IMG/VR virus record: IMGVR_UViG_3300020183_000011 | Direction: 5' to 3' (one strand) | DNA from: a virus | Length of the DNA stretch: 64,000 nt | Part shown: piece by piece, positions 3,189-46,699 of the stretch | Position numbering within the stretch: the stretch's first letter is position 1 | Layout of the letters: each line of letters starts with the position of its first letter | The notes under the pieces: model-generated | Databases searched by the model: none | The model's input: only the letters and a program-made list of their open reading frames with translations | What the model was told of the DNA's origin: nothing | Program-made: the position numbers and the translations under genes

Positions 3189-3217
3189 TGTACTTTAATT
3201 AAGGAAGCATATATAAT
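3189..3217 (+). promoter_or_regulatory. Sigma70-type promoter TGTACT-N17-TATAAT
   Basis: -35 at 3189-3194, -10 at 3212-3217; member of a recurrent motif family. Confidence 0.6.
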
Positions 3218-3951: not shown

Positions 3952-4709
3952 TAGATGTTGTTATTCCTACGATGTGGATAGTAAAAGATGTTGTAAGTAG
4001 ATTAGAAAAATATATTGAATGTCCACTAATTAATAAGATAATATTGATTGATAATAACCCTAAAAAACGGCCTAAGTCATCTATTTTTAATAATCCTAAA
4101 ATTGAACTAGTTTGCTATGGATCAAATATCTATGTAAATCCAGCATGGAATGAAGGCTATTTAAGATCTACTTCAGATGTCATAGCAATTATAAATGATG
4201 ACATACTAGTAGATTCTGATATTTTTTATATGGTTAAAAACTTTAATCTAAAAGCTGGAGAAATGATTGGGGTAGATCTTAAAGGATATAAAGATAATTT
4301 CAAAATAGATGATGTCATTGATACTAAAGAAGAGATCGTAGATTTCAATTATAACAAAAATTATCCAATAGGTGGCCAAGCTTGGGCATTTGGTATATGC
4401 ATGTTTATTCATAAGCATACATATAAACTAATTCCAAGTCTTTATAAAATTTGGTTTGGAGACGATTATTTAGCGCAACATGCTACTAAAGTATATGCTA
4501 TTCATAGCAATAAAATTAAAGGTGAAATCTCTGAAACTTTAAAAGAATTAACATTAAATAATATAGAAGGTGAAGTACACAAGCGCATAGAGTTGGACTG
4601 TAGAAATCTTGTTAGGTTTGATCATTTTATTAATGGTGAAAATTGGGATATTGCTGCAGGTATGATAAAGATGATAGATCAAAAGCAATCTAAAAAAACA
4701 TATAAATAA
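3948..4709 (+). CDS. GT2-family glycosyltransferase
   Basis: IDVVIPT, ILIDN, NPAWNEG, INDD, WFGDD motifs. Confidence 0.8.
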   Translation: MIDVVIPTMWIVKDVVSRLEKYIECPLINKIILIDNNPKKRPKSSIFNNPKIELVCYGSNIYVNPAWNEGYLRSTSDVIAIINDDILVDSDIFYMVKNFNLKAGEMIGVDLKGYKDNFKIDDVIDTKEEIVDFNYNKNYPIGGQAWAFGICMFIHKHTYKLIPSLYKIWFGDDYLAQHATKVYAIHSNKIKGEISETLKELTLNNIEGEVHKRIELDCRNLVRFDHFINGENWDIAAGMIKMIDQKQSKKTYK

Positions 4710-4759
4710 ACTTAAGTGACATTTTATTATAATTTTATATATTAGAAAGAGTAGATCAA

Positions 4760-5656
4760 ATGAAATATAGCATTTTTCATATTCAAGGTGGACTTGGTAA
4801 ACATGTGGCGGCTACAGCCGTTGCTAAAGCCATCAAGAACAATCATCCAGATCGTCAATTAATAATAGTATGTGCATATCCTGATGTATTTCTAAATCTA
4901 GATTATGTAGATCGTGTATACAAGATTGGAGGTACTCAATACTTCTATCAAGAATATGTGCACGAAAAAGATTCCATAATTTTTCATAATGAACCATACT
5001 ATACAACCAATCATATTCATAGAAAAAAGCGTCTAATAGAAAATTGGTGTGATATGTATGGTTTAAAATATGATGGAGAATTACCTAAAGTTAAGTTTAA
5101 TACTTTACAATTTAATCTTTCTAAAAACTTTTGGAGTAAAAAGAAACCTTTAATGGTTATCCATACTAATGGAGGTCTTATGTCTTTAGATGCTAAGCCT
5201 TATGCATGGACACGAGATATGCCATTTGATATAGCTCAAGAATTGGTAAATCATTATAAAAAAGATTATCATATATATCAAGTAACAAAGATGAACTCTA
5301 GAAAATTAGAAGGTGCTGATCACATCTTTGCTACAGATAAACAAGCATTAAGTACTCCTGAATTTTTTAGTTTAATGTTGCATACTAAAAAACGAATATT
5401 AATTGACTCATGTTTACAACACGTTGCTGCAGCTATGAATTTAAAATCAACTGTATTATGGAATGGTACTAGCCCTAAAGTATTTGGATATGATATCCAT
5501 GATAATATATGTACTGATGTACCATATGATTTTAAATTACCTGGGAGCTATCTATTTGACTTTGACTTCAATGGAAATGAATTAGAGTATCCATTTGCTG
5601 AGGACGTTAAGTTATTTGATATTAATAAAATCATTGAATCAGTGGACAAACAATAA
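4760..5656 (+). CDS. GT-B glycosyltransferase (GT9/heptosyltransferase-like)
   Basis: GGLGKHV N-terminal loop and IDSCLQHVAAAM...TVLWNGTSPKVFGY resemble the GT9 DSG..H.A.A...LFGPT motif; late promoter at 4701-4708. Confidence 0.7.
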   Translation: MKYSIFHIQGGLGKHVAATAVAKAIKNNHPDRQLIIVCAYPDVFLNLDYVDRVYKIGGTQYFYQEYVHEKDSIIFHNEPYYTTNHIHRKKRLIENWCDMYGLKYDGELPKVKFNTLQFNLSKNFWSKKKPLMVIHTNGGLMSLDAKPYAWTRDMPFDIAQELVNHYKKDYHIYQVTKMNSRKLEGADHIFATDKQALSTPEFFSLMLHTKKRILIDSCLQHVAAAMNLKSTVLWNGTSPKVFGYDIHDNICTDVPYDFKLPGSYLFDFDFNGNELEYPFAEDVKLFDINKIIESVDKQ

Positions 5657-39832: not shown

Positions 39833-40768
39833 ATGCAAGAATACTTATGGGTGGAGAAGTATCGTCCACAAAAGATCGACGATTGTGTCTTACCAAAGAA
39901 CTTAAAAGAAACATTTAAGCAGTTCGTCCAAACTGGTGAACTACCAAACTTCTTGTTTTGTGGTACAGCAGGTGTAGGTAAAACCACTGTAGCCAAAGCA
40001 TTATGTAACGAGATAGGTGCCGAATACCTACTCATCAACGGGTCTGAGGAATCAGGTATTGACGTACTCAGAACCAAGATCAAATCATTTGCCTCAACAG
40101 TATCTTTGACTGACTCAAAGAAAGTCATCATACTAGACGAAGCAGACTATCTAAACCCAAACTCTACACAACCAGCTCTTAGAGCTTTCATCGAAGAATT
40201 CTCTAACAACTGTCGTTTCATCTTTACGTGTAACTATAAGAACCGAATCATTGATCCTCTCCATTCAAGGTGTAGTGTGATTGATTTCAAGATCGAGAAT
40301 AATGAAAAGCAACAAATTGCTTCATCGTTCTTTAAACGAGTAATGAATATACTTACTCAAGAGAATATTGTAGCAGATCAAAAAGTTGTAGCAGAGTTAG
40401 TGACTAAACACTTTCCAGATTGGAGACGTGTACTAAATGAACTACAACGTTATTCTGTGTCTGGTAAGATCGACTCAGGCATATTATTAAATGTAACTGA
40501 AGAGTCATTCAAACAACTCATCACTAACCTCAAAGATAAAAACTACACAGAAGTTAGGAAATGGGTAGCTAAGAATGGAGATTCAGATACTATAAATATA
40601 TTTAGGCAGCTATACGACACGTCTTCTGTGAACATAGAAGCAGCGAGTATACCTCAACTAGTATTGATACTTGCCGATTATCAGTATAAGGCTGCATTCG
40701 TAGCAGATCATGAAGTAAACCTCATGGCTGCACTAACGGAGATCATGGCACAATGCAAGATGAAATAA
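39833..40768 (+). CDS. gp44: Clamp loader large subunit gp44
   Basis: WVEKYRP, GVGKTT, ILDEAD, SRC. Confidence 0.96.
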   Translation: MQEYLWVEKYRPQKIDDCVLPKNLKETFKQFVQTGELPNFLFCGTAGVGKTTVAKALCNEIGAEYLLINGSEESGIDVLRTKIKSFASTVSLTDSKKVIILDEADYLNPNSTQPALRAFIEEFSNNCRFIFTCNYKNRIIDPLHSRCSVIDFKIENNEKQQIASSFFKRVMNILTQENIVADQKVVAELVTKHFPDWRRVLNELQRYSVSGKIDSGILLNVTEESFKQLITNLKDKNYTEVRKWVAKNGDSDTINIFRQLYDTSSVNIEAASIPQLVLILADYQYKAAFVADHEVNLMAALTEIMAQCKMK

Positions 40769-40959
40769 TAAAAGACCAGTATGATGCAGAGGACTGGGAT
40801 AAAGCGATCTATTTAATAGAACGTGGGTTTATCAAACTAGATCATGTAGATAAACCTGACGATATCCGTGAAACCGCGATCAACATACATAACGCAAAGC
40901 TTAGGACGATCGACGAGTACATTAAAAACGGTGGAACACCGCCGTTCGAAGGGAAATAA
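40753..40959 (+). CDS. Hypothetical protein
   Basis: Coupled ORF inserted between gp44 and gp62. Confidence 0.5.
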   Translation: MQDEIIKDQYDAEDWDKAIYLIERGFIKLDHVDKPDDIRETAINIHNAKLRTIDEYIKNGGTPPFEGK

Positions 40960-41279
40960 TGTTAACATTCATAGTCGGCGCATTATTAGGAGTTGCTTTA
41001 GGTTGGTACATACAAAGAGTATTAATCAACTATAAGATGAAGTTAATGCTTGATAGTATAGCAAACTCGCCAATAGAAACAAAGTTAAAAGTAGTGGATA
41101 TTGATCTAGTCAAGATCAAAGATAGGGTGTACGCGTATGATAGGAAGGATAACTCGTTCTTAGGATATGCTAACTCAAAGAATGAGATGGTAGACGACCT
41201 TCGTAAGAGATACCCAAATACATCATTCATGGCGAGGTCTTCAAACCTAAAAGAAGTAGAGTTCAATGACACCATTTGA
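40959..41279 (+). CDS. Hypothetical membrane-anchored protein
   Basis: N-terminal hydrophobic helix; coupled ORF. Confidence 0.55.
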   Translation: MLTFIVGALLGVALGWYIQRVLINYKMKLMLDSIANSPIETKLKVVDIDLVKIKDRVYAYDRKDNSFLGYANSKNEMVDDLRKRYPNTSFMARSSNLKEVEFNDTI

Positions 41280-41646
41280 TTTTCTTAATGCTATAAACGA
41301 GAACAAGAAGGATCTATTTACAGACCCTCAAGCAGAGAAGGACTATAATGCCTTTATCATAAACAAAGGCCTATCATTCTTTCCAGACACAGTCTTATAT
41401 GCCAACCAGATGAACGTGATCAGGGATATTCCTAAGAAGTGGCAATTTGAGTTCCTCAAGAACTCTATCCCAAAGAAAAAGAGGTTTTCAAAATGGCATA
41501 AGAAGGAAGCCACTACAGACAGCCTTAAGCTTATCATGAACCATTACAAGTACTCTGAAAAGAAAGCTTATGAAGTATTAAATATCTTGACACCCAAGCA
41601 GTTAATAGAACTCCAACAAGCCTATGATAAGGGCGGTAGAAACTAG
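41266..41646 (+). CDS. gp62: Clamp loader small subunit gp62
   Basis: PFDFLNAIN, YNAFIINKGLS, KKKRFSKW. Confidence 0.9.
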   Translation: MTPFDFLNAINENKKDLFTDPQAEKDYNAFIINKGLSFFPDTVLYANQMNVIRDIPKKWQFEFLKNSIPKKKRFSKWHKKEATTDSLKLIMNHYKYSEKKAYEVLNILTPKQLIELQQAYDKGGRN

Positions 41647-41694
41647 AAACCTTATAAATATATTATGTAATTAAATAAAGAAAGTGATTTTATA

Positions 41695-42132
41695 ATGTCT
41701 ATAGCAATGGTGTATTATGATTGGACACCTGATGCAATGTTAGAAGTTGACTTGATCGAACCAGATAACTTCCTCAAAGTCAGAGAAACTCTAACCCGCA
41801 TCGGTATAGCGTCTAGAAAAGACAAGAAGCTATTCCAGTCATGCCATATACTACATAAACAAGGTAAGTACTTCATCGTACACTTTAAAGAATTGTTTGC
41901 CCTTGATGGCAAAGAATCTGATATCTCTATGTCCGATATCGAGAGACGAAATGTCATAGCTGAATTACTACAAGATTGGGGTCTGCTTAAGATTTTAGAT
42001 AAATCCAAGGCAGAACCAAAGGCTTCTCTATCTCAGATCAAAGTTGTTTCATACAAAGAAAAATCTGAGTGGGAATTAGTACCGAAATATAACATCGGCG
42101 GTATTAAACGTAACGTTACTATTAATAACTAG
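41695..42132 (+). CDS. regA: Translational repressor RegA
   Basis: FLKVRETLTRIG, QSCHILHKQG.Y.IVHFKELF, LVPKY; late promoter at 41653-41660. Confidence 0.96.
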   Translation: MSIAMVYYDWTPDAMLEVDLIEPDNFLKVRETLTRIGIASRKDKKLFQSCHILHKQGKYFIVHFKELFALDGKESDISMSDIERRNVIAELLQDWGLLKILDKSKAEPKASLSQIKVVSYKEKSEWELVPKYNIGGIKRNVTINN

Positions 42133-42140
42133 GAGTTTTT

Positions 42141-42341
42141 ATGAGCATCAAACTTGATTTAACAATTGAAGAAATTAATACCATTCTTCGTTCTTTGGGT
42201 AAACACCCATTCGATGAGATCGTTGTATTAATCTCTAAAATTAAACAACAAGGTGAAATTCAACTTGCAGAGCAACAAAAATTAGCAGCAGAACAAGCTA
42301 CAGCTGCTGAACAAGCGCAATCAGAAACACCAGCTGAATAA
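42141..42341 (+). CDS. Small hypothetical protein
   Basis: AGGAG RBS; LTIEEINTIL..LGKHPFDEI. Confidence 0.65.
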   Translation: MSIKLDLTIEEINTILRSLGKHPFDEIVVLISKIKQQGEIQLAEQQKLAAEQATAAEQAQSETPAE

Positions 42342-42407
42342 TAACAGGTTTATTACTTTTTAATACTTTTAACTAGTCCTTTTTAATAAATATTGTATAA
42401 GTAATTA

Positions 42408-42436
42408 TGTACATTAAATCAAAGTCATGATATAAT
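42408..42436 (+). promoter_or_regulatory. TGTACA-N17-TATAAT promoter upstream of pqqA
   Basis: Motif seen directly. Confidence 0.75.
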
Positions 42437-42559
42437 GTATCTGTATGGTTGAATGATTGTACAAAGTTATATAGGCCTCAAGGTAGACCTTTATCTTATT
42501 GATATCTCTACTGACATGAGTTTATAAACGCAATATTTTATAAACAAAGGAGAACTACT

Positions 42560-42631
42560 ATGTGGACAAAACCAGCTGCAACTGAAATGCGCTTCGGTTT
42601 CGAAGTAACAATGTACGTAATGAACAAGTAA
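42560..42631 (+). CDS. pqqA: Pyrroloquinoline quinone precursor peptide PqqA
   Basis: Translates to [23 protein letters not shown] (23 aa) with the WTKP...R.GFEVT.Y signature and E-x3-Y; AAAGGAG RBS; own promoter and terminator. Confidence 0.95.
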
Positions 42632-42667
42632 TTGTTCTAGTACATGGACTGGGGATACTCGGTCGGC

Positions 42668-42699
42668 AAAGGGGACTTAAAATGTCCCCTTTATTTTTT
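42668..42699 (+). terminator. Intrinsic terminator after pqqA
   Basis: AAAGGGGAC-ttaaaat-GTCCCCTTT followed by ATTTTTT. Confidence 0.85.
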
Positions 42700-42703
42700 A
42701 CTA

Positions 42704-42732
42704 TGTACATTAATTAATAATTATGGTATAAT
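42704..42732 (+). promoter_or_regulatory. TGTACA-N17-TATAAT promoter upstream of bS21
   Basis: Motif seen directly. Confidence 0.75.
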
Positions 42733-42758
42733 GGGCATATTAGTCAAGGAGAATCAAA

Positions 42759-43016
42759 ATAGCTATACCAAATAAAAAGTTTAAACCAAGACCAGACGAA
42801 AGGCAAGGCCTTGCAGTAGACGTGCCTGATGGCCAGTTCGAGAAGGCTTTCAGGAAGTTTAGAAACAAAGTACAAGACTCTGGTCTTTTACAAGAGATAC
42901 GTGATCGTATGCAGTACGAGAAACCATGCATCGCGCGTAAGAAAGCCAAGAATCAATCTCGTAAGAGATGGCTTAAGAAAGTAGCATCTACAAAGTTACC
43001 ACCAAAACTATATTAA
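42759..43016 (+). CDS. rpsU: Ribosomal protein bS21 (probable ATA start)
   Basis: VDVPDGQFEKAFRKFRNKVQDSGLLQEIRDRMQYEKPCIARKK matches bS21 (V.V...fe.ALRRFK......G...E.R.R..YEKP). AGGAG lies 7 nt before an in-frame ATA at 42759. Confidence 0.88.
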   Translation: MAIPNKKFKPRPDERQGLAVDVPDGQFEKAFRKFRNKVQDSGLLQEIRDRMQYEKPCIARKKAKNQSRKRWLKKVASTKLPPKLY

Positions 43017-43026
43017 GGAGATCATA

Positions 43027-43089
43027 ATGGGTAATCGTGATAAGAAAAAAGAATCAAAAGGCAGACCTAAAAAAGATAAGGCAAAATAA
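43027..43089 (+). CDS. 20-aa highly basic peptide
   Basis: MGNRDKKKESKGRPKKDKAK; AAGGAG RBS at 43015-43020; stop overlaps the next ATG (TAATG). Confidence 0.65.
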   Translation: MGNRDKKKESKGRPKKDKAK

Positions 43090-43292
43090 TGGTAGCAAAG
43101 AATGACATCACTAGTGATAGCATCTTATCAAAGTCAGCCACAAAAGAATTTGATAAGAACTTTGATGCCATCGATTGGTCAGTTAAGTTAGACGCTCCAC
43201 AAGACGGAGACCAAAGACTTAACAATGAAGGCAAACTTGAACATTATTATGGAGGACAGTGGAATGCAACAGGACAAAAAGAACCGACCTGA
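43089..43292 (+). CDS. Hypothetical protein
   Basis: AKNDITSDSI.SK...FDKNFDAIDW; coupled ORF. Confidence 0.65.
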   Translation: MVAKNDITSDSILSKSATKEFDKNFDAIDWSVKLDAPQDGDQRLNNEGKLEHYYGGQWNATGQKEPT

Positions 43293-43491
43293 GTTACCAA
43301 GGGTCGACGTGCAAAAAGCAGTAAACGCTGTAGGTAACAGGTATTATATGATCTTGATGGCAGCACACATGGCCCGAGACATTACTAAACGAAGAGACTT
43401 CTTAGATCGTAAAGCAGAGAAGCTCCACTATTATGGCTATAAACCTATCAATCAAGCATTGCAGGATATTATAGATGACGCAGGATTATAA
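43264..43491 (+). CDS. rpoZ: RNA polymerase omega subunit (RpoZ)-like protein
   Basis: RVDVQKAVNAVGNRYYMILMAAHMAR...KPINQALQDI parallels RpoZ ([26 protein letters not shown]...K...ALREI); GGAGG RBS before ATG 43264. Confidence 0.75.
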   Translation: MQQDKKNRPELPRVDVQKAVNAVGNRYYMILMAAHMARDITKRRDFLDRKAEKLHYYGYKPINQALQDIIDDAGL

Positions 43492-43597
43492 GTACACTCA
43501 ACAAGAATGGGATAAGACGGTAGGTTGGGGCAAAGTCCCCGAGGATCGTGAAGTTAAACCCGAGCCTCAAAAAGAAAATAACCTACCAACTAAATAG
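43475..43597 (+). CDS. 40-aa hypothetical peptide
   Basis: MTQDYKYTQQEWDKTVGWGKVPEDRE...; AGGA RBS; overlaps the end of the rpoZ-like gene. Confidence 0.5.
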   Translation: MTQDYKYTQQEWDKTVGWGKVPEDREVKPEPQKENNLPTK

Positions 43598-43684
43598 GTA
43601 TATACTGACGTATACCAAACGGCATATAAATTTTCGAGCGCGTTTCAATAAATAATTATAGAAACAACAACTAAGGAGATTTAA

Positions 43685-43933
43685 ATGAAAGCTTTGGTAT
43701 TACTCATAACTTTATTTTTTAGTATAGCTTCACATGCAGCAGATGTTGATCAAAACAATATCAACAATCAACAGTTTTCTAGACGACCATATGCAAAGGT
43801 TCCAGCTCCAAAAGCTGAAACATATGAAGGCGACGTGGTTAGTAAAGAAGAGCAAGTTGCTGAAGATAAATATAAGACACTACGTCTGCATCAATTAGGT
43901 CGTAGACCATACGCAGAAAAGAATACAGATTAA
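43685..43933 (+). CDS. Secreted small protein with two Q-x-x-RRPY motifs
   Basis: Signal peptide ending SHA-A; QQFSRRPYAK and HQLGRRPYAE; AAGGAG RBS. Confidence 0.75.
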   Translation: MKALVLLITLFFSIASHAADVDQNNINNQQFSRRPYAKVPAPKAETYEGDVVSKEEQVAEDKYKTLRLHQLGRRPYAEKNTD

Positions 43934-43942
43934 GTATTACTT

Positions 43943-43983
43943 AGGGTTTTGTGAGGTTCCCTCGTATTAAAATAACCTCACAA
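43943..43983 (+). other. Predicted H-type RNA pseudoknot in a 3' UTR
   Basis: AGGG(43943-46) pairs with CCCT(43959-62); TTGTGAGGTT(43949-58) pairs with AACCTCACAA(43974-83). Confidence 0.5.
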
Positions 43984-43987
43984 GTTG

Positions 43988-44049
43988 TATAAATAGTATT
44001 GCCTATGCCTTCGGGGTAGGTATTTTGTTAAACTCGCTTAAATAAGGAG
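43988..44049 (+). promoter_or_regulatory. Late promoter plus ROSE-like RNA thermometer leader of hsp20
   Basis: TATAAATA at 43988-95; cUUCGg hairpin at 44001-21; CTCGCTT pairs with the AAGGAG SD with a bulged G (UYGCU motif) at 44033-49. Confidence 0.6.
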
Positions 44050-44056
44050 AAAATAA

Positions 44057-44542
44057 ATGCGAACAACAAACGTTTCATTTGGCCCTATCTGGCCTTCAAC
44101 AGTTGGATTTGATAACATCATTAATGAGCTAGACGCTTTACTTAATGCTCAAACTCCAGCATCAACCTTCCCACCTCATAACATTATTAAGGTAGACGAC
44201 TATCAATACATCGTTGAACTTGCAATCGCAGGCTTTAATAAACAAGAGGTAACTATCACCCTTAAAGATGGACTACTCGAGATCAAAGGAAATAAAAATC
44301 CTGATGATGTAGATGTACAGTACCTCCATAAGGGAATTGGTACAAGATCATTCATTAAGACTATTAGACTTGCTGACACTGTTGAAGTTAAAGGTGCAGA
44401 GTTCAAGGATGGTATCTTACGTGTTGCTCTTGAGAATGTAATCCCTGAATCTAAGAAGCCTCGTAACATCGAGATCTCTGACTCACTTCCACTAATTCAA
44501 CCCAAAGAAAAAGAGTTGTTAGTAGAAAAGACTGATAGTTAA
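44057..44542 (+). CDS. hsp20: Small heat shock protein Hsp20 (IbpA-like)
   Basis: FPPHNII, ELAIAGF, YLHKGIGTRSF, GAEFKDGIL, IPESKKPRNIEI. Confidence 0.95.
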   Translation: MRTTNVSFGPIWPSTVGFDNIINELDALLNAQTPASTFPPHNIIKVDDYQYIVELAIAGFNKQEVTITLKDGLLEIKGNKNPDDVDVQYLHKGIGTRSFIKTIRLADTVEVKGAEFKDGILRVALENVIPESKKPRNIEISDSLPLIQPKEKELLVEKTDS

Positions 44543-44547
44543 AGGGT

Positions 44548-44567
44548 AGGGGAGAGCAATCTCCCCT
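44548..44567 (+). terminator. GNRA-loop hairpin after hsp20
   Basis: AGGGGAGA-GCAA-TCTCCCCT; no long U tract. Confidence 0.5.
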
Positions 44568-44576
44568 CATAAATAT

Positions 44577-44798
44577 ATGATGAAGAATGAATTGACAAAA
44601 GACTTAGTTTCTTATCCGTTTTTACGGAGGGGAAACTATCAACTAAAAGTTTCAGTACTTAAAAATATGAGTGTCGTGGTCGTAGGTAATCATCTAATGG
44701 ACATTGATAAGTTTTTTGTAAAACATTTTAGTAACTTAGAAACAGCAGCAGATTTTATAGAATTTACATTATTAAAGGATGAATATGGCGGACACTAA
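44577..44798 (+). CDS. Hypothetical protein
   Basis: ORF between hsp20 and the next conserved gene. Confidence 0.55.
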   Translation: MMKNELTKDLVSYPFLRRGNYQLKVSVLKNMSVVVVGNHLMDIDKFFVKHFSNLETAADFIEFTLLKDEYGGH

Positions 44799-45099
44799 AT
44801 TATTAATCATTAAATTGATCAGCAGCGAAGAGATCTTATGTACTCAAATCTCATCAGGCGAGGGTGTAATGGTCATTAAAGATGCAGTATTATTGATCTA
44901 TAAACAAACTAAAGAAGGTAATATGTCAGTAGGTTTTGCTCCATATATGCCTTATGCAGATGGAACGATCTCACTAAATCACAGCGCTATTGCTTCAAAC
45001 AGTTATCCAAAACAAGAACTAGCAGACGAATATAATCGTATCTTTGGTTCAGGCATCATGATAGCTGGTGCAAACGACGCAGCATTTAAAGCCAAATAA
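44785..45099 (+). CDS. Conserved T4-like hypothetical protein
   Basis: IKLISSEEIL, GFAPYMPY, YNRIFGSGI; N-terminus resembles ORF 28451. Confidence 0.7.
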   Translation: MADTKLLIIKLISSEEILCTQISSGEGVMVIKDAVLLIYKQTKEGNMSVGFAPYMPYADGTISLNHSAIASNSYPKQELADEYNRIFGSGIMIAGANDAAFKAK

Positions 45100-45100
45100 T

Positions 45101-45129
45101 TGTACTTTTAATCCCAGACGGGATATAAT
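45101..45129 (+). promoter_or_regulatory. TGTACT-N17-TATAAT promoter of the modification operon (likely leaderless)
   Basis: ATG 45136 lies 7 nt after the -10 box, with no SD. Confidence 0.7.
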
Positions 45130-45135
45130 TATATT

Positions 45136-45540
45136 ATGAAATCAGTTCCAGACTTCATTGAAGGCCATAAGCCTTCTAATGATATATTGATCTTAGGCCA
45201 ATGTCCCTCTTCTAAAACTAAACCATTTAAGAATGGGACATTTGCACGTCTGAGCAAATGGTTAGAAACTGTAGATGTGCATGCATTTGCATTCCATAAC
45301 GTGATACCTGATAAGATCAATAGTTATGACATTAAAGACGTACAGTATAAGAAGCTATACACTGTATCGCATGGTCGAAAGAAGATCATCGCATTAGGTG
45401 GGTTTGTAGAACGCGTATGTAAGAAGTATAACATACCACACTATAAGATAGATCATCCTTCTCCAAGGAATCGTAACTTAAATGACCCTAAATATGAAGA
45501 GCAGATGTTAAAACGACTAAGAGATTATCTCAATGATTGA
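45136..45540 (+). CDS. Uracil-DNA glycosylase-superfamily-like protein
   Basis: ILILGQCPS (motif A), IIALG, IDHPSPRNR (motif B). Confidence 0.7.
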   Translation: MKSVPDFIEGHKPSNDILILGQCPSSKTKPFKNGTFARLSKWLETVDVHAFAFHNVIPDKINSYDIKDVQYKKLYTVSHGRKKIIALGGFVERVCKKYNIPHYKIDHPSPRNRNLNDPKYEEQMLKRLRDYLND

Positions 45541-46699
45541 GACTACACAATACTATGACGAGTACATAAGATATTTTAGTCTTGCAAAGGATCAGCAAGA
45601 AAAGTGTAACGTATCTCTTAATCCACCGTATGGTATGATACCGCATGCAGAGTCGGACATGAATGATGATCTACTTCATTATATTGAACTATATGATGTG
45701 GTAGAACGTAAGTACGCAGGGTTTTCTCAGATAGTTAATGATTGCTTTTATGGCTGGACCGAAGATCACCCATACTGGAAAAAGATGGAAGCTGGTAAGA
45801 TCACTCGTCAACGGGATACGATAGCTAAGAACTGGACAGGAAAACACTCAGACTTTAAGTTACCTGAATGGCTGTACATCTTTATCCTCCATCGTGTATG
45901 CGGTTCTGCGATCAACTATTCTACAAAACCAAGTGGATATCACAATACCATACTATTTGGTTTACACAACTGTAAGACTATTGAAGACATGGTCGAGATG
46001 GTGAATAACTATCCATCATCGTTCTATACTTCTGTAGGTTATCAGTTCCCAGCTTTTCCTAAACCACCAGCAGATTCAAGATACAAAAAGGGTGGAGACT
46101 ATTACCTATCAGAGTATGCACCACGATTAGCAAGAGAACTAGCAGAGTATTTAGAATCTGGTGGTAAACGATCATTAAGAGAGATCGGTTCATTCATGTT
46201 GGATTGGAACGTTAAGAACGACTTAAGACAGTACCATTTTCAATACGCAGCAGTGGTTGCAGACGTGGCTGACTGGTATCCTCAGTATGTAGATAAGACA
46301 TCACCATTTTACTACGGTACAAATGCAGTAGAGTGTATATCATATCTTGCTAAACCTACATCTAAGATGAAACAAGAACAATTCTTAGATCAAGTAATGA
46401 TGAAGATATATGAAGATACTAAAGCATACCCATACAATGCAGAAGACGTATGCTGTGACTTCATCCGATGGGTAGAGAACTATGTCCGACCAGGATCTGA
46501 CTACGATCATCTTGATTTTGATAGTGTATGGTCGTCATGTAAGATTAAAGACCATCCATTTGGTAGACAGAAAGCAATGCTACAACTAGGATTAGTAGAC
46601 ACATTTAATAGTATGACAGCTCATCCATCAGATGATGCTATCTTAAAAGCAAACAACATGACTGTAGAACAATATAAGGAACTATGCAAAACACTCTAA
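45533..46699 (+). CDS. aGPT-PPlase / amino acid:DNA transferase-like protein (paralogue 1)
   Basis: FQYAAVVADVAD, YGTNAVEC, AEDVCCDFIRW resemble the F......D / G..A / E..LC.F.KY motifs of the glycosylase-derived base-modifying family. Confidence 0.55.
   Translation: MIETTQYYDEYIRYFSLAKDQQEKCNVSLNPPYGMIPHAESDMNDDLLHYIELYDVVERKYAGFSQIVNDCFYGWTEDHPYWKKMEAGKITRQRDTIAKNWTGKHSDFKLPEWLYIFILHRVCGSAINYSTKPSGYHNTILFGLHNCKTIEDMVEMVNNYPSSFYTSVGYQFPAFPKPPADSRYKKGGDYYLSEYAPRLARELAEYLESGGKRSLREIGSFMLDWNVKNDLRQYHFQYAAVVADVADWYPQYVDKTSPFYYGTNAVECISYLAKPTSKMKQEQFLDQVMMKIYEDTKAYPYNAEDVCCDFIRWVENYVRPGSDYDHLDFDSVWSSCKIKDHPFGRQKAMLQLGLVDTFNSMTAHPSDDAILKANNMTVEQYKELCKTL

Follow-up and report, generated by a model that had tools for sequence, protein, structure and literature searches.

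The 64-kb stretch of viral DNA analysed here (IMGVR_UViG_3300020183_000011, hereafter the window) is one part of a phage genome and carries a complete, stand-alone pqqA gene. The gene lies on the plus strand at positions 42560 to 42631 (72 nt) and consists of 23 codons followed by TAA, with the ATG at 42560 and the stop codon at 42629-42631. PqqA is the peptide precursor of pyrroloquinoline quinone (PQQ), the cofactor of methanol dehydrogenase. We consider it likely that the phage has domesticated a functional pqqA, which would sustain or raise the PQQ supply for methanol dehydrogenase during infection of Methylophilaceae.

Identity of the peptide

Judged by its sequence the open reading frame (ORF) is a genuine pqqA. 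A preliminary description of this DNA had named the gene from its letters and proposed scoring the peptide with a hidden Markov model. Both family models bear the identification out with scores of about twice the curated cut-offs, namely 42.4 bits for Pfam PqqA (PF08042; cut-off 21.1, E 6e-11, model positions 1-19 of 19) and 40.4 bits for the NCBIfam equivalog model TIGR02107 (cut-off 20, positions 1-21 of 21). The Glu-x3-Tyr pair that had been described is in place as well, with Glu15 encoded at 42602-42604 and Tyr19 at 42614-42616, inside an R-x-G-x-E-V-T-x-Y core. These two residues of PqqA are cross-linked to form PQQ, and the peptide is consumed stoichiometrically, one PqqA per PQQ.

None of the enzymes of the pathway is evident beside the peptide gene. 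In a tblastn search of the window, PqqB, PqqC, PqqD and PqqE gave only matches with E>2, and no PQQ-pathway or radical S-adenosylmethionine (SAM) domain was found in the approximately 30 larger ORFs scanned. The domain scans covered the larger ORFs of the window, about 30 for the PQQ pathway and radical-SAM domains and about 45 for integrase. Hence, the earlier statement that pqqBCDE are missing holds within this 64-kb part of the genome. Likewise, tblastn found no match to PqqB-E in any of 120 other viral loci with pqqA, among the matches listed. With a promoter, ribosome-binding site and terminator of its own and no PqqB-E match in the window, the gene is the stand-alone unit that the preliminary description had taken it for.

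Occurrence and selection in phages

Viral databases had also been named as a place to check the reading. A tblastn search against 50,697 GenBank phage records found pqqA in nine methylophage records, i.e. in all nine returned records named Methylophilales or Methylophilaceae phage (four Melnitz records, Venkman, P19250A, MEP301, MEP401 and MEP402). One uncultured spring-water phage matched in addition; otherwise the matches were solely mislabelled chromosomal contigs of Acinetobacter. The latter, filed as 'Acinetobacter phage MD-2021a', were rejected as phage evidence since the contigs are of bacterial origin and contain the whole pqqABCDE operon. One of them (L007, CAKLQF020000010.1), a chromosomal contig with ppk and pqqABCDE that is mislabelled as phage, was the source of the PqqB-E queries. 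The GenBank carriers span T4-like myoviruses, the 35-45 kb type of Venkman, P19250A and MEP301, and Zobellviridae, and the distribution of phage pqqA in GenBank is confined to phages of obligate methylotrophs.

The GenBank records of Venkman, P19250A, MEP301 and MEP402 have no annotation for the gene. Hypothetical proteins on the opposite strand are annotated over pqqA in Melnitz-1 (L001:3961-4056, MZ577095.1) and in MW202481.1 (L002:2067-2195). Owing to its small size the gene escapes gene callers and GenBank records, and viral metabolic inventories consequently undercount it. The family-specific core of PqqA could in turn serve as a handy marker that links uncultured phages to Methylophilaceae hosts.

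A degenerate pattern for the core, which presupposes that the core is intact, retrieved at least 120 contigs from IMG/VR. All 120 pqqA copies listed are intact ORFs of 23-25 codons, and the flanks of the viral genes fall into at least 11 clusters of nucleotide similarity. For a sampling independent of pqqA, 80 relatives were collected via regA, the gene that precedes pqqA in the window, and a RegA tree was calculated. Within the clade of the window (Shimodaira-Hasegawa-like approximate likelihood ratio support 97) each of the 16 members that could be assessed has pqqA, at a distance of 220-690 nt downstream of regA. The gene also occurs in two smaller RegA clades, and a 42-member sister clade is devoid of it. 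The distribution on the tree requires three changes, compared with 17.2 for shuffled labels.

The phage alleles indicate that pqqA is under strong purifying selection. Among 22 distinct alleles the proportion of synonymous differences (pS) is 0.586 and that of nonsynonymous differences (pN) is 0.108, i.e. pN/pS is 0.18. Arg11, Phe12, Gly13, Phe14, Val16, Thr17 and Tyr19 are invariant across these alleles despite two to four synonymous codons each. Glu15 is invariant too and is encoded by the single codon GAA.

Comparison with Methylophilaceae genomes

A degenerate DNA pattern for the PqqA core was also applied to bacterial genomes, where it retrieved at least 120 contigs. Among the matches listed, these are almost all from Methylophilaceae (Methylotenera, Methylophilus, Methylobacillus, Methylovorus, Candidatus Methylopumilus and OM43), and the peptide of the window is letter-identical to at least 29 Methylophilaceae genome copies and at least 20 viral copies. 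Two of the identical host copies are located 69-154 nt upstream of pqqB. A variant with one exchanged residue (MWTTPAATE...) accounts for nine further operon-linked copies, which together with the two identical ones lie 69-180 nt upstream of pqqB, and in total 26 operon-linked host copies share the PqqA core, again among the matches listed. The earlier assignment of the peptide to the Methylophilaceae type is thereby substantiated. Since identical copies are found next to pqqB, nothing in the sequence distinguishes the phage peptide from a genuine substrate of the pathway. On the nucleotide level the gene of the window differs from host genes at 2-4 of 72 positions, with four differences to an operon-linked Methylophilus copy.

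Most host copies are themselves orphans (73 copies on 68 loci), and only three of these 68 loci resemble viral DNA outside pqqA; a terminator hairpin follows 103 of 120 host copies (all counts among the matches listed). A 12-kb pqqA-bearing contig assigned to 'Gammaproteobacteria bacterium CCP3-SC1AL1' (L230, CAUYTX010000455.1) is 81-88% identical over several kb to the viral contig L046 and probably represents a prophage or other phage DNA.

PqqE was detected above the cut-off in four of five Methylophilaceae genomes checked as candidate hosts, including Candidatus Methylopumilus; the fifth is a 0.9-Mb single-cell assembly. These genomes contain one to four pqqA copies each. In Candidatus Methylopumilus universalis, which has a streamlined chromosome of 1.27 Mb, three pqqA copies are found at approximately 416, 457 and 1186 kb and pqqE at 578 kb, so that none is operon-linked. 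For Methylophilaceae 3-12 pqqA copies per single pqqBCDEFG were described (Beck et al. 2014, PMC4109929). The multiple host copies argue that the dosage of PqqA matters in this family, and the fact that the hosts multiply only pqqA suits a substrate that is consumed stoichiometrically.

Expression signals

The preliminary description had placed a promoter at 42408-42436, and a consensus scan recovers it (10 of 12 matches, plus strand). A -35-like TGTACA at 42408-42413 is followed by an extended -10 TG at 42428-42429 and the -10 box TATAAT at 42431-42436, in the layout TGTACA-17-TG-n-TATAAT. This promoter is one of ten copies of the motif GTACNTTWA-N10-14-KRTATAAT on the same strand of the window, with 0.00 copies expected from 100 shuffles. 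The copies start at 3190, 34046, 34321, 36505, 42409, 42705, 45102, 49621, 54665 and 57321, and members of the family precede pqqA, the gene for ribosomal protein S21, a peptidase, an AAA ATPase, the operon at 45136 and the gp43 DNA polymerase. Their -35 region is unusual, with GTACATTAA instead of TTGACA. In addition, a 32-nt repeat of the pqqA promoter occurs at 42702-42733 and 45099-45130. Because ten motif copies stand against an expectation of 0.00, the predicted promoter belongs to a real phage promoter class and is no chance look-alike of a sigma-70 promoter. As copies precede S21, gp43 and other units, pqqA is presumably wired into the phage's own, predicted transcription programme.

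A Shine-Dalgarno sequence, AAAGGAG, is read directly at 42546-42552 on the plus strand, 7 nt 5' of the ATG, in agreement with the ribosome-binding site described before. Such a motif accompanies 121 of 127 viral pqqA copies among the matches listed, and its GGAGAA core is invariant in the alignment. The terminator described at 42668-42699 was likewise found by a terminator scan and folding. It is a predicted intrinsic terminator on the plus strand with a 9-bp GC-rich stem (42668-42692), a 7-nt loop and a T-run extending to 42699. A GC-rich hairpin with T-run is kept in place 3' of pqqA in each of the 16 relatives listed for the RegA clade of the window, with varying stem sequences; the T-run is absent 3' of pqqA in the two most distant relatives (L269 and L273). 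A strict terminator-like site follows 58 of 124 viral pqqA copies among the matches listed, compared with 1 of 124 shuffled controls. Since pN/pS is low and the terminator is kept while its stem varies, selection appears to act on pqqA as a peptide-coding and separately terminated unit.

The cassette is thus bracketed by the promoter at 42408-42436, the terminator ending at 42699 and a next promoter from 42704. This next copy of the pqqA-type promoter (42704-42732, plus strand) opens the S21 unit and forms the 3' border of the pqqA cassette.

Between promoter and start codon an alignment of T4-like relatives reveals a conserved element of the 5' untranslated region (5' UTR), CTCAAGGTAGAC ... 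TCTCTACTGA (42477-42514, plus strand), which is predicted to lie within a hairpin. The alignment shows that it is kept in T4-like relatives even where the promoter differs. Among the matches listed, the element is found upstream of pqqA in five T4-like viral copies only; all 129 host copies and the remaining viral copies, including those of the small phages, lack it. The predicted pqqA transcript folds better than shuffled versions of it (z = -3.9). Two TATAAAC motifs at 42523-42529 and 42539-42545 resemble the late-promoter box of T4, TATAAATA.

A group I intron in pqqA of related phages

In the window pqqA is uninterrupted. In related phages the gene is split by a predicted group I intron, and the homologous insertion site, unoccupied in the window, lies between 42599 and 42600 (plus strand), after the first base of the Phe14 codon. 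The first case is L253 (IMGVR_UViG_3300021963_000480), whose RegA is identical to that of the window over 135 alignment columns of the tree (99% by tblastn) and from which pqqA seemed to be absent. Its pqqA is split by 242 nt (4693-4934), which score 95.8 bits with the group I intron model at a gathering threshold of 50.

When IMG/VR was searched for exon 2 with G rather than T immediately before it, at least 12 contigs with exon 2 behind an intron were obtained (L253, L328-L339), all in the T4-like cluster except L335, a 1.2-kb locus that is too short to be placed. Both exons were found in 11 of the 12, with a gap of 231-278 nt at one exact site, and joining them in silico gives an intact PqqA ORF. 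In L335 a group I intron (93.9 bits) precedes the same exon 2, and no exon 1 was found within the 1.2 kb of this locus. The introns comprise at least three sequence types (231-233, 240-242 and 278 nt), and contigs representing each type (L253, L339, L335, L334, L328, L336, L333 and L329) score 65-96 bits with RF00028, again at a gathering threshold of 50. At the predicted splice sites the 5' exon ends in U and the intron in G, and in-silico splicing restores the frame. On this basis pqqA of these relatives is interrupted by a group I intron for which splicing is predicted. Precise restoration of the ORF by splicing is to be expected solely of a gene that is transcribed and whose peptide is required. 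With exons of 40 and 32 nt, pqqA would rank among the shortest known protein-coding genes with an intron.

In 8 of the 12 intron contigs (L253, L339, L336, L329, L328, L333, L337 and L338) an ORF for a homing endonuclease follows 100-170 nt downstream of exon 2. In L253 it is a free-standing HNH-type ORF at 5074-5568 (phrog_655, E 5e-15), whose score of 20.4 bits with the Pfam HNH model is just under the cut-off of 21.4. Among more than 200 viral loci without the intron, to which the window belongs, none has a homologue of the HNH ORF. The intron-bearing L328 and the intron-less L037 are 99.975% identical over 4064 nt and differ by the 240-nt intron and an endonuclease cassette of approximately 600 nt. 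Between the two insertions, exon 2 is only 91.9% identical, resembling a tract of co-conversion. By analogy, the arrangement of the intron and the adjacent HNH gene looks like collaborative homing, and the intron-less allele of the window is presumably cleavable by the HNH endonuclease. Intron homing in uncultured T4-like phages of the sea and of fresh water could be studied on the intron-bearing alleles as a natural system. We found no publication that links a group I intron with pqqA, and the intron in phage pqqA seems to be new.

The carrier phage and the surroundings of pqqA

All large ORFs of the window are on the plus strand. According to the ORF scans they encode a large terminase subunit, a tail sheath protein, a gp20-type portal protein and a gp23-type major capsid protein, and also a UvsW-like helicase, gp46/47, gp45, gp44/62, RegA, DNA ligase, gp43, thymidylate synthase and UvsX. 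Because of this T4-type core gene set, the window is assigned to a T4-like myophage. The major capsid protein is only 62% identical to those of the nearest cultured phages (Melnitz, cyanomyophages and the pelagimyophage HTVC008M), and a megablast search with positions 40000-46000 against GenBank phages gave no match. Consequently, the phage has no close cultured relative there. It is most likely a lytic phage that infects Methylophilaceae. With 2-10 differences per 72 nt to the copies of Methylotenera, Methylophilus, OM43 and Methylopumilus, pqqA does not single out a host genus, and 69 nt are too short for a reliable tree. No Rfam family reached the gathering threshold in the window, and ARAGORN detected no tRNA.

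Directly upstream of pqqA lies regA (41695-42132, plus strand; phrog_242, E 6e-60), the T4-core gene of a translational repressor. It precedes a variable island of small host-like genes, to which pqqA, ribosomal protein S21 and Hsp20 belong. The order of the flanking genes is gp45, gp44, gp62 and RegA upstream and S21, Hsp20, DNA ligase and gp43 downstream.

The S21 gene was identified by phrog_21469. In the region 42759-43016 it probably begins 5' of the listed GTG at 42822. The open frame of the window 5' of this GTG aligns with the N-terminal stretch KPRP...QGLFVDV of the S21 homologue in L334, which starts with ATG. No ATG, GTG or TTG is present in this part of the frame in the window.

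Proposed function and alternative explanations

We propose the following course of events. The phage would transcribe pqqA alongside genes of the replication class, and the infected cell would be flooded with PqqA, the sole component that PQQ biosynthesis consumes. Host PqqD would bind the peptide, and the radical-SAM enzyme PqqE would cross-link Glu15 to Tyr19. Host proteases would then trim the cross-linked peptide, and PqqB and PqqC would finish the ring system of PQQ. The extra PQQ may keep or raise the activity of the periplasmic methanol dehydrogenase (XoxF/MxaF), which would power the cell and thereby phage production. The preliminary description had further suggested that PqqA may be the component most sensitive to host shut-off; the strong purifying selection and the 3-12 pqqA copies of Methylophilaceae lend this suggestion and a sustained PQQ supply indirect support. 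From the sequence we infer that phage pqqA is an auxiliary metabolic gene whose target is a cofactor precursor rather than an enzyme. If true, it points to the step in the energy metabolism of the host that is worth supporting for a phage. Methylophilaceae (OM43 in coastal seas, LD28/Methylopumilus in lakes and Methylotenera in sediments) are major consumers of methanol, and their phages decide how much of this carbon is respired or released.

Several points weigh against this proposal. PQQ is tightly bound, recycled and not consumed in catalysis, and a renewed supply becomes important only when fresh apo-enzyme is synthesized or PQQ is lost over a long latent period. Overexpression of pqqA alone reportedly left PQQ unraised in Gluconobacter oxydans, and PqqA would therefore not be rate-limiting everywhere. 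No methanol dehydrogenase gene was found among the approximately 30 larger ORFs scanned in the window. Finally, the medium used to propagate the cultured OM43 phages contained 1 nM added PQQ (PMC9004378), and a phenotype could therefore be conditional.

All evidence for a functional gene fits equally well if the peptide is turned into PQQ and the benefit lies elsewhere, i.e. in other quinoproteins, in an antioxidant effect during infection or in a public good released at lysis. The supplementation of OM43 media (PMC9004378) points in the same direction, as external PQQ is treated there as a growth factor. However, the GenBank carriers are confined to phages of obligate methylotrophs, in which methanol dehydrogenase is the main quinoprotein, and a public good is hard to select in a lytic phage. 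Such a use of PQQ is therefore unlikely, if still deserving of attention. A nearly neutral passenger was also considered, namely a small and highly expressed host cassette that is easily captured, re-acquired or carried along with introns and homing endonucleases. The difference of only 2-4 of 72 nt to host genes is compatible with recent or repeated capture, and the variable island after regA as well as the traffic of introns and endonucleases at this locus in relatives would suit a passenger. In contrast, a pN/pS of 0.18 at saturating synonymous change among the phage alleles (pS 0.59), fixation in 16 of 16 assessable clade members and a promoter of the phage and not the host type all speak against a passenger. 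It also occurs in unrelated phage types, and there were 0 disrupted copies among the 120 pattern-matched contigs listed, though the pattern required an intact core. Taken together, we regard a passenger as improbable.

A role as regulator or decoy, in which excess PqqA or its mRNA titrates PqqD/PqqE, a host protease or a small-RNA system, would account for the conserved phage-specific element in the 5' UTR, which host copies lack, and for a transcript that folds better than shuffled versions (z = -3.9). The peptide, however, is letter-identical to the host substrate, so that host enzymes cannot tell the two apart, and selection acts on the amino acids, including both residues that become PQQ. 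This renders a regulator highly improbable. Finally, pqqA might be the remnant of an integration site, i.e. a phage attachment site (attP) that includes a copy of the gene targeted in the host. Indeed, pqqA is found near recombination genes and on the strand opposite to its neighbours in Venkman, MEP301 and the Manatee Spring phage. The phage of the window, by contrast, is T4-like and lytic, with no integrase in the approximately 45 ORFs scanned, and its pqqA is a whole gene with ribosome-binding site, promoter and terminator, whose coding sequence has diverged at synonymous positions and is not identical to a host site. For the window a remnant of integration was rejected on these grounds, its probability being negligibly small.

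Thus, a functional pqqA that supports the PQQ supply of methanol dehydrogenase is the explanation we prefer. A more far-reaching version is conceivable but doubtful at present. In this version pqqA is the signature host-derived gene of Methylophilaceae phages, the supply of PQQ precursor is the energy bottleneck in infected methylotrophs and, in the T4-like clade of the window, pqqA is in addition a homing site for mobile group I introns, which would spread by collaborative homing with the adjacent HNH endonuclease.

Comparison with known systems

The preliminary description had cautioned that phage pqqA might be known already, and rightly so. A viral PqqA was published for the Lake Baikal phage population VP_266 and was read as an auxiliary metabolic gene supporting methanol dehydrogenase (Coutinho et al. 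2020, Microbiome, PMC7678222). Phage pqqA is therefore known as a kind, and its functional reading is not new. Like the window, VP_266 represents uncultured phages with a stand-alone PqqA gene that are assigned to Methylophilaceae hosts. The Baikal phages also encode methanol dehydrogenase, of which none was seen in the 64 kb of the window, and that paper reports a single population. New with the window are a T4-like lineage distinct from Melnitz, the fixed position after regA and the phage-type promoter, together with the intron and endonuclease in relatives.

The cultured Methylophilales phages (Melnitz, Venkman, P19250A, MEP301 and MEP401/402) carry the same intact stand-alone gene, with peptides that are 77-96% identical to that of the window; they differ from it in genome type and in the position of pqqA. 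In Melnitz, the nearest cultured relative (62% identity of the major capsid protein), the gene is found directly before tRNA-Leu and not after regA. The searchable papers on cultured Methylophilales phages do not mention pqqA. Chromosomal pqqA genes of Methylophilaceae share with the window the identical 23-residue peptide, the Shine-Dalgarno sequence, the terminator hairpin and an often large distance from pqqBCDE, whereas the copy of the window is flanked by T4 core genes and preceded by a phage promoter and a phage-specific 5' UTR.

The comparison with cyanophage psbA drawn in the preliminary description is apt and can be extended. In both cases the gene stems from the host, is carried by T4-like phages and encodes a quickly consumed part of the machinery that provides the host with energy. 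Cyanophage S-PM2 has an intron-bearing psbA and, adjacent to it, the free-standing endonuclease F-CphI, an arrangement described as 'collaborative homing' (PMC6083498). As in S-PM2, pqqA of the relatives of the window contains a predicted group I intron without an ORF and has a gene for a putative free-standing homing endonuclease as its neighbour. In contrast to psbA, which encodes a protein of 360 residues that turns over by damage, pqqA encodes a peptide of 23 residues that is consumed chemically, and the copy of the window is free of an intron. If our proposal is correct, the supply of a precursor for the cofactor of methanol dehydrogenase by phages would be the counterpart of cyanophage psbA at the level of a cofactor.

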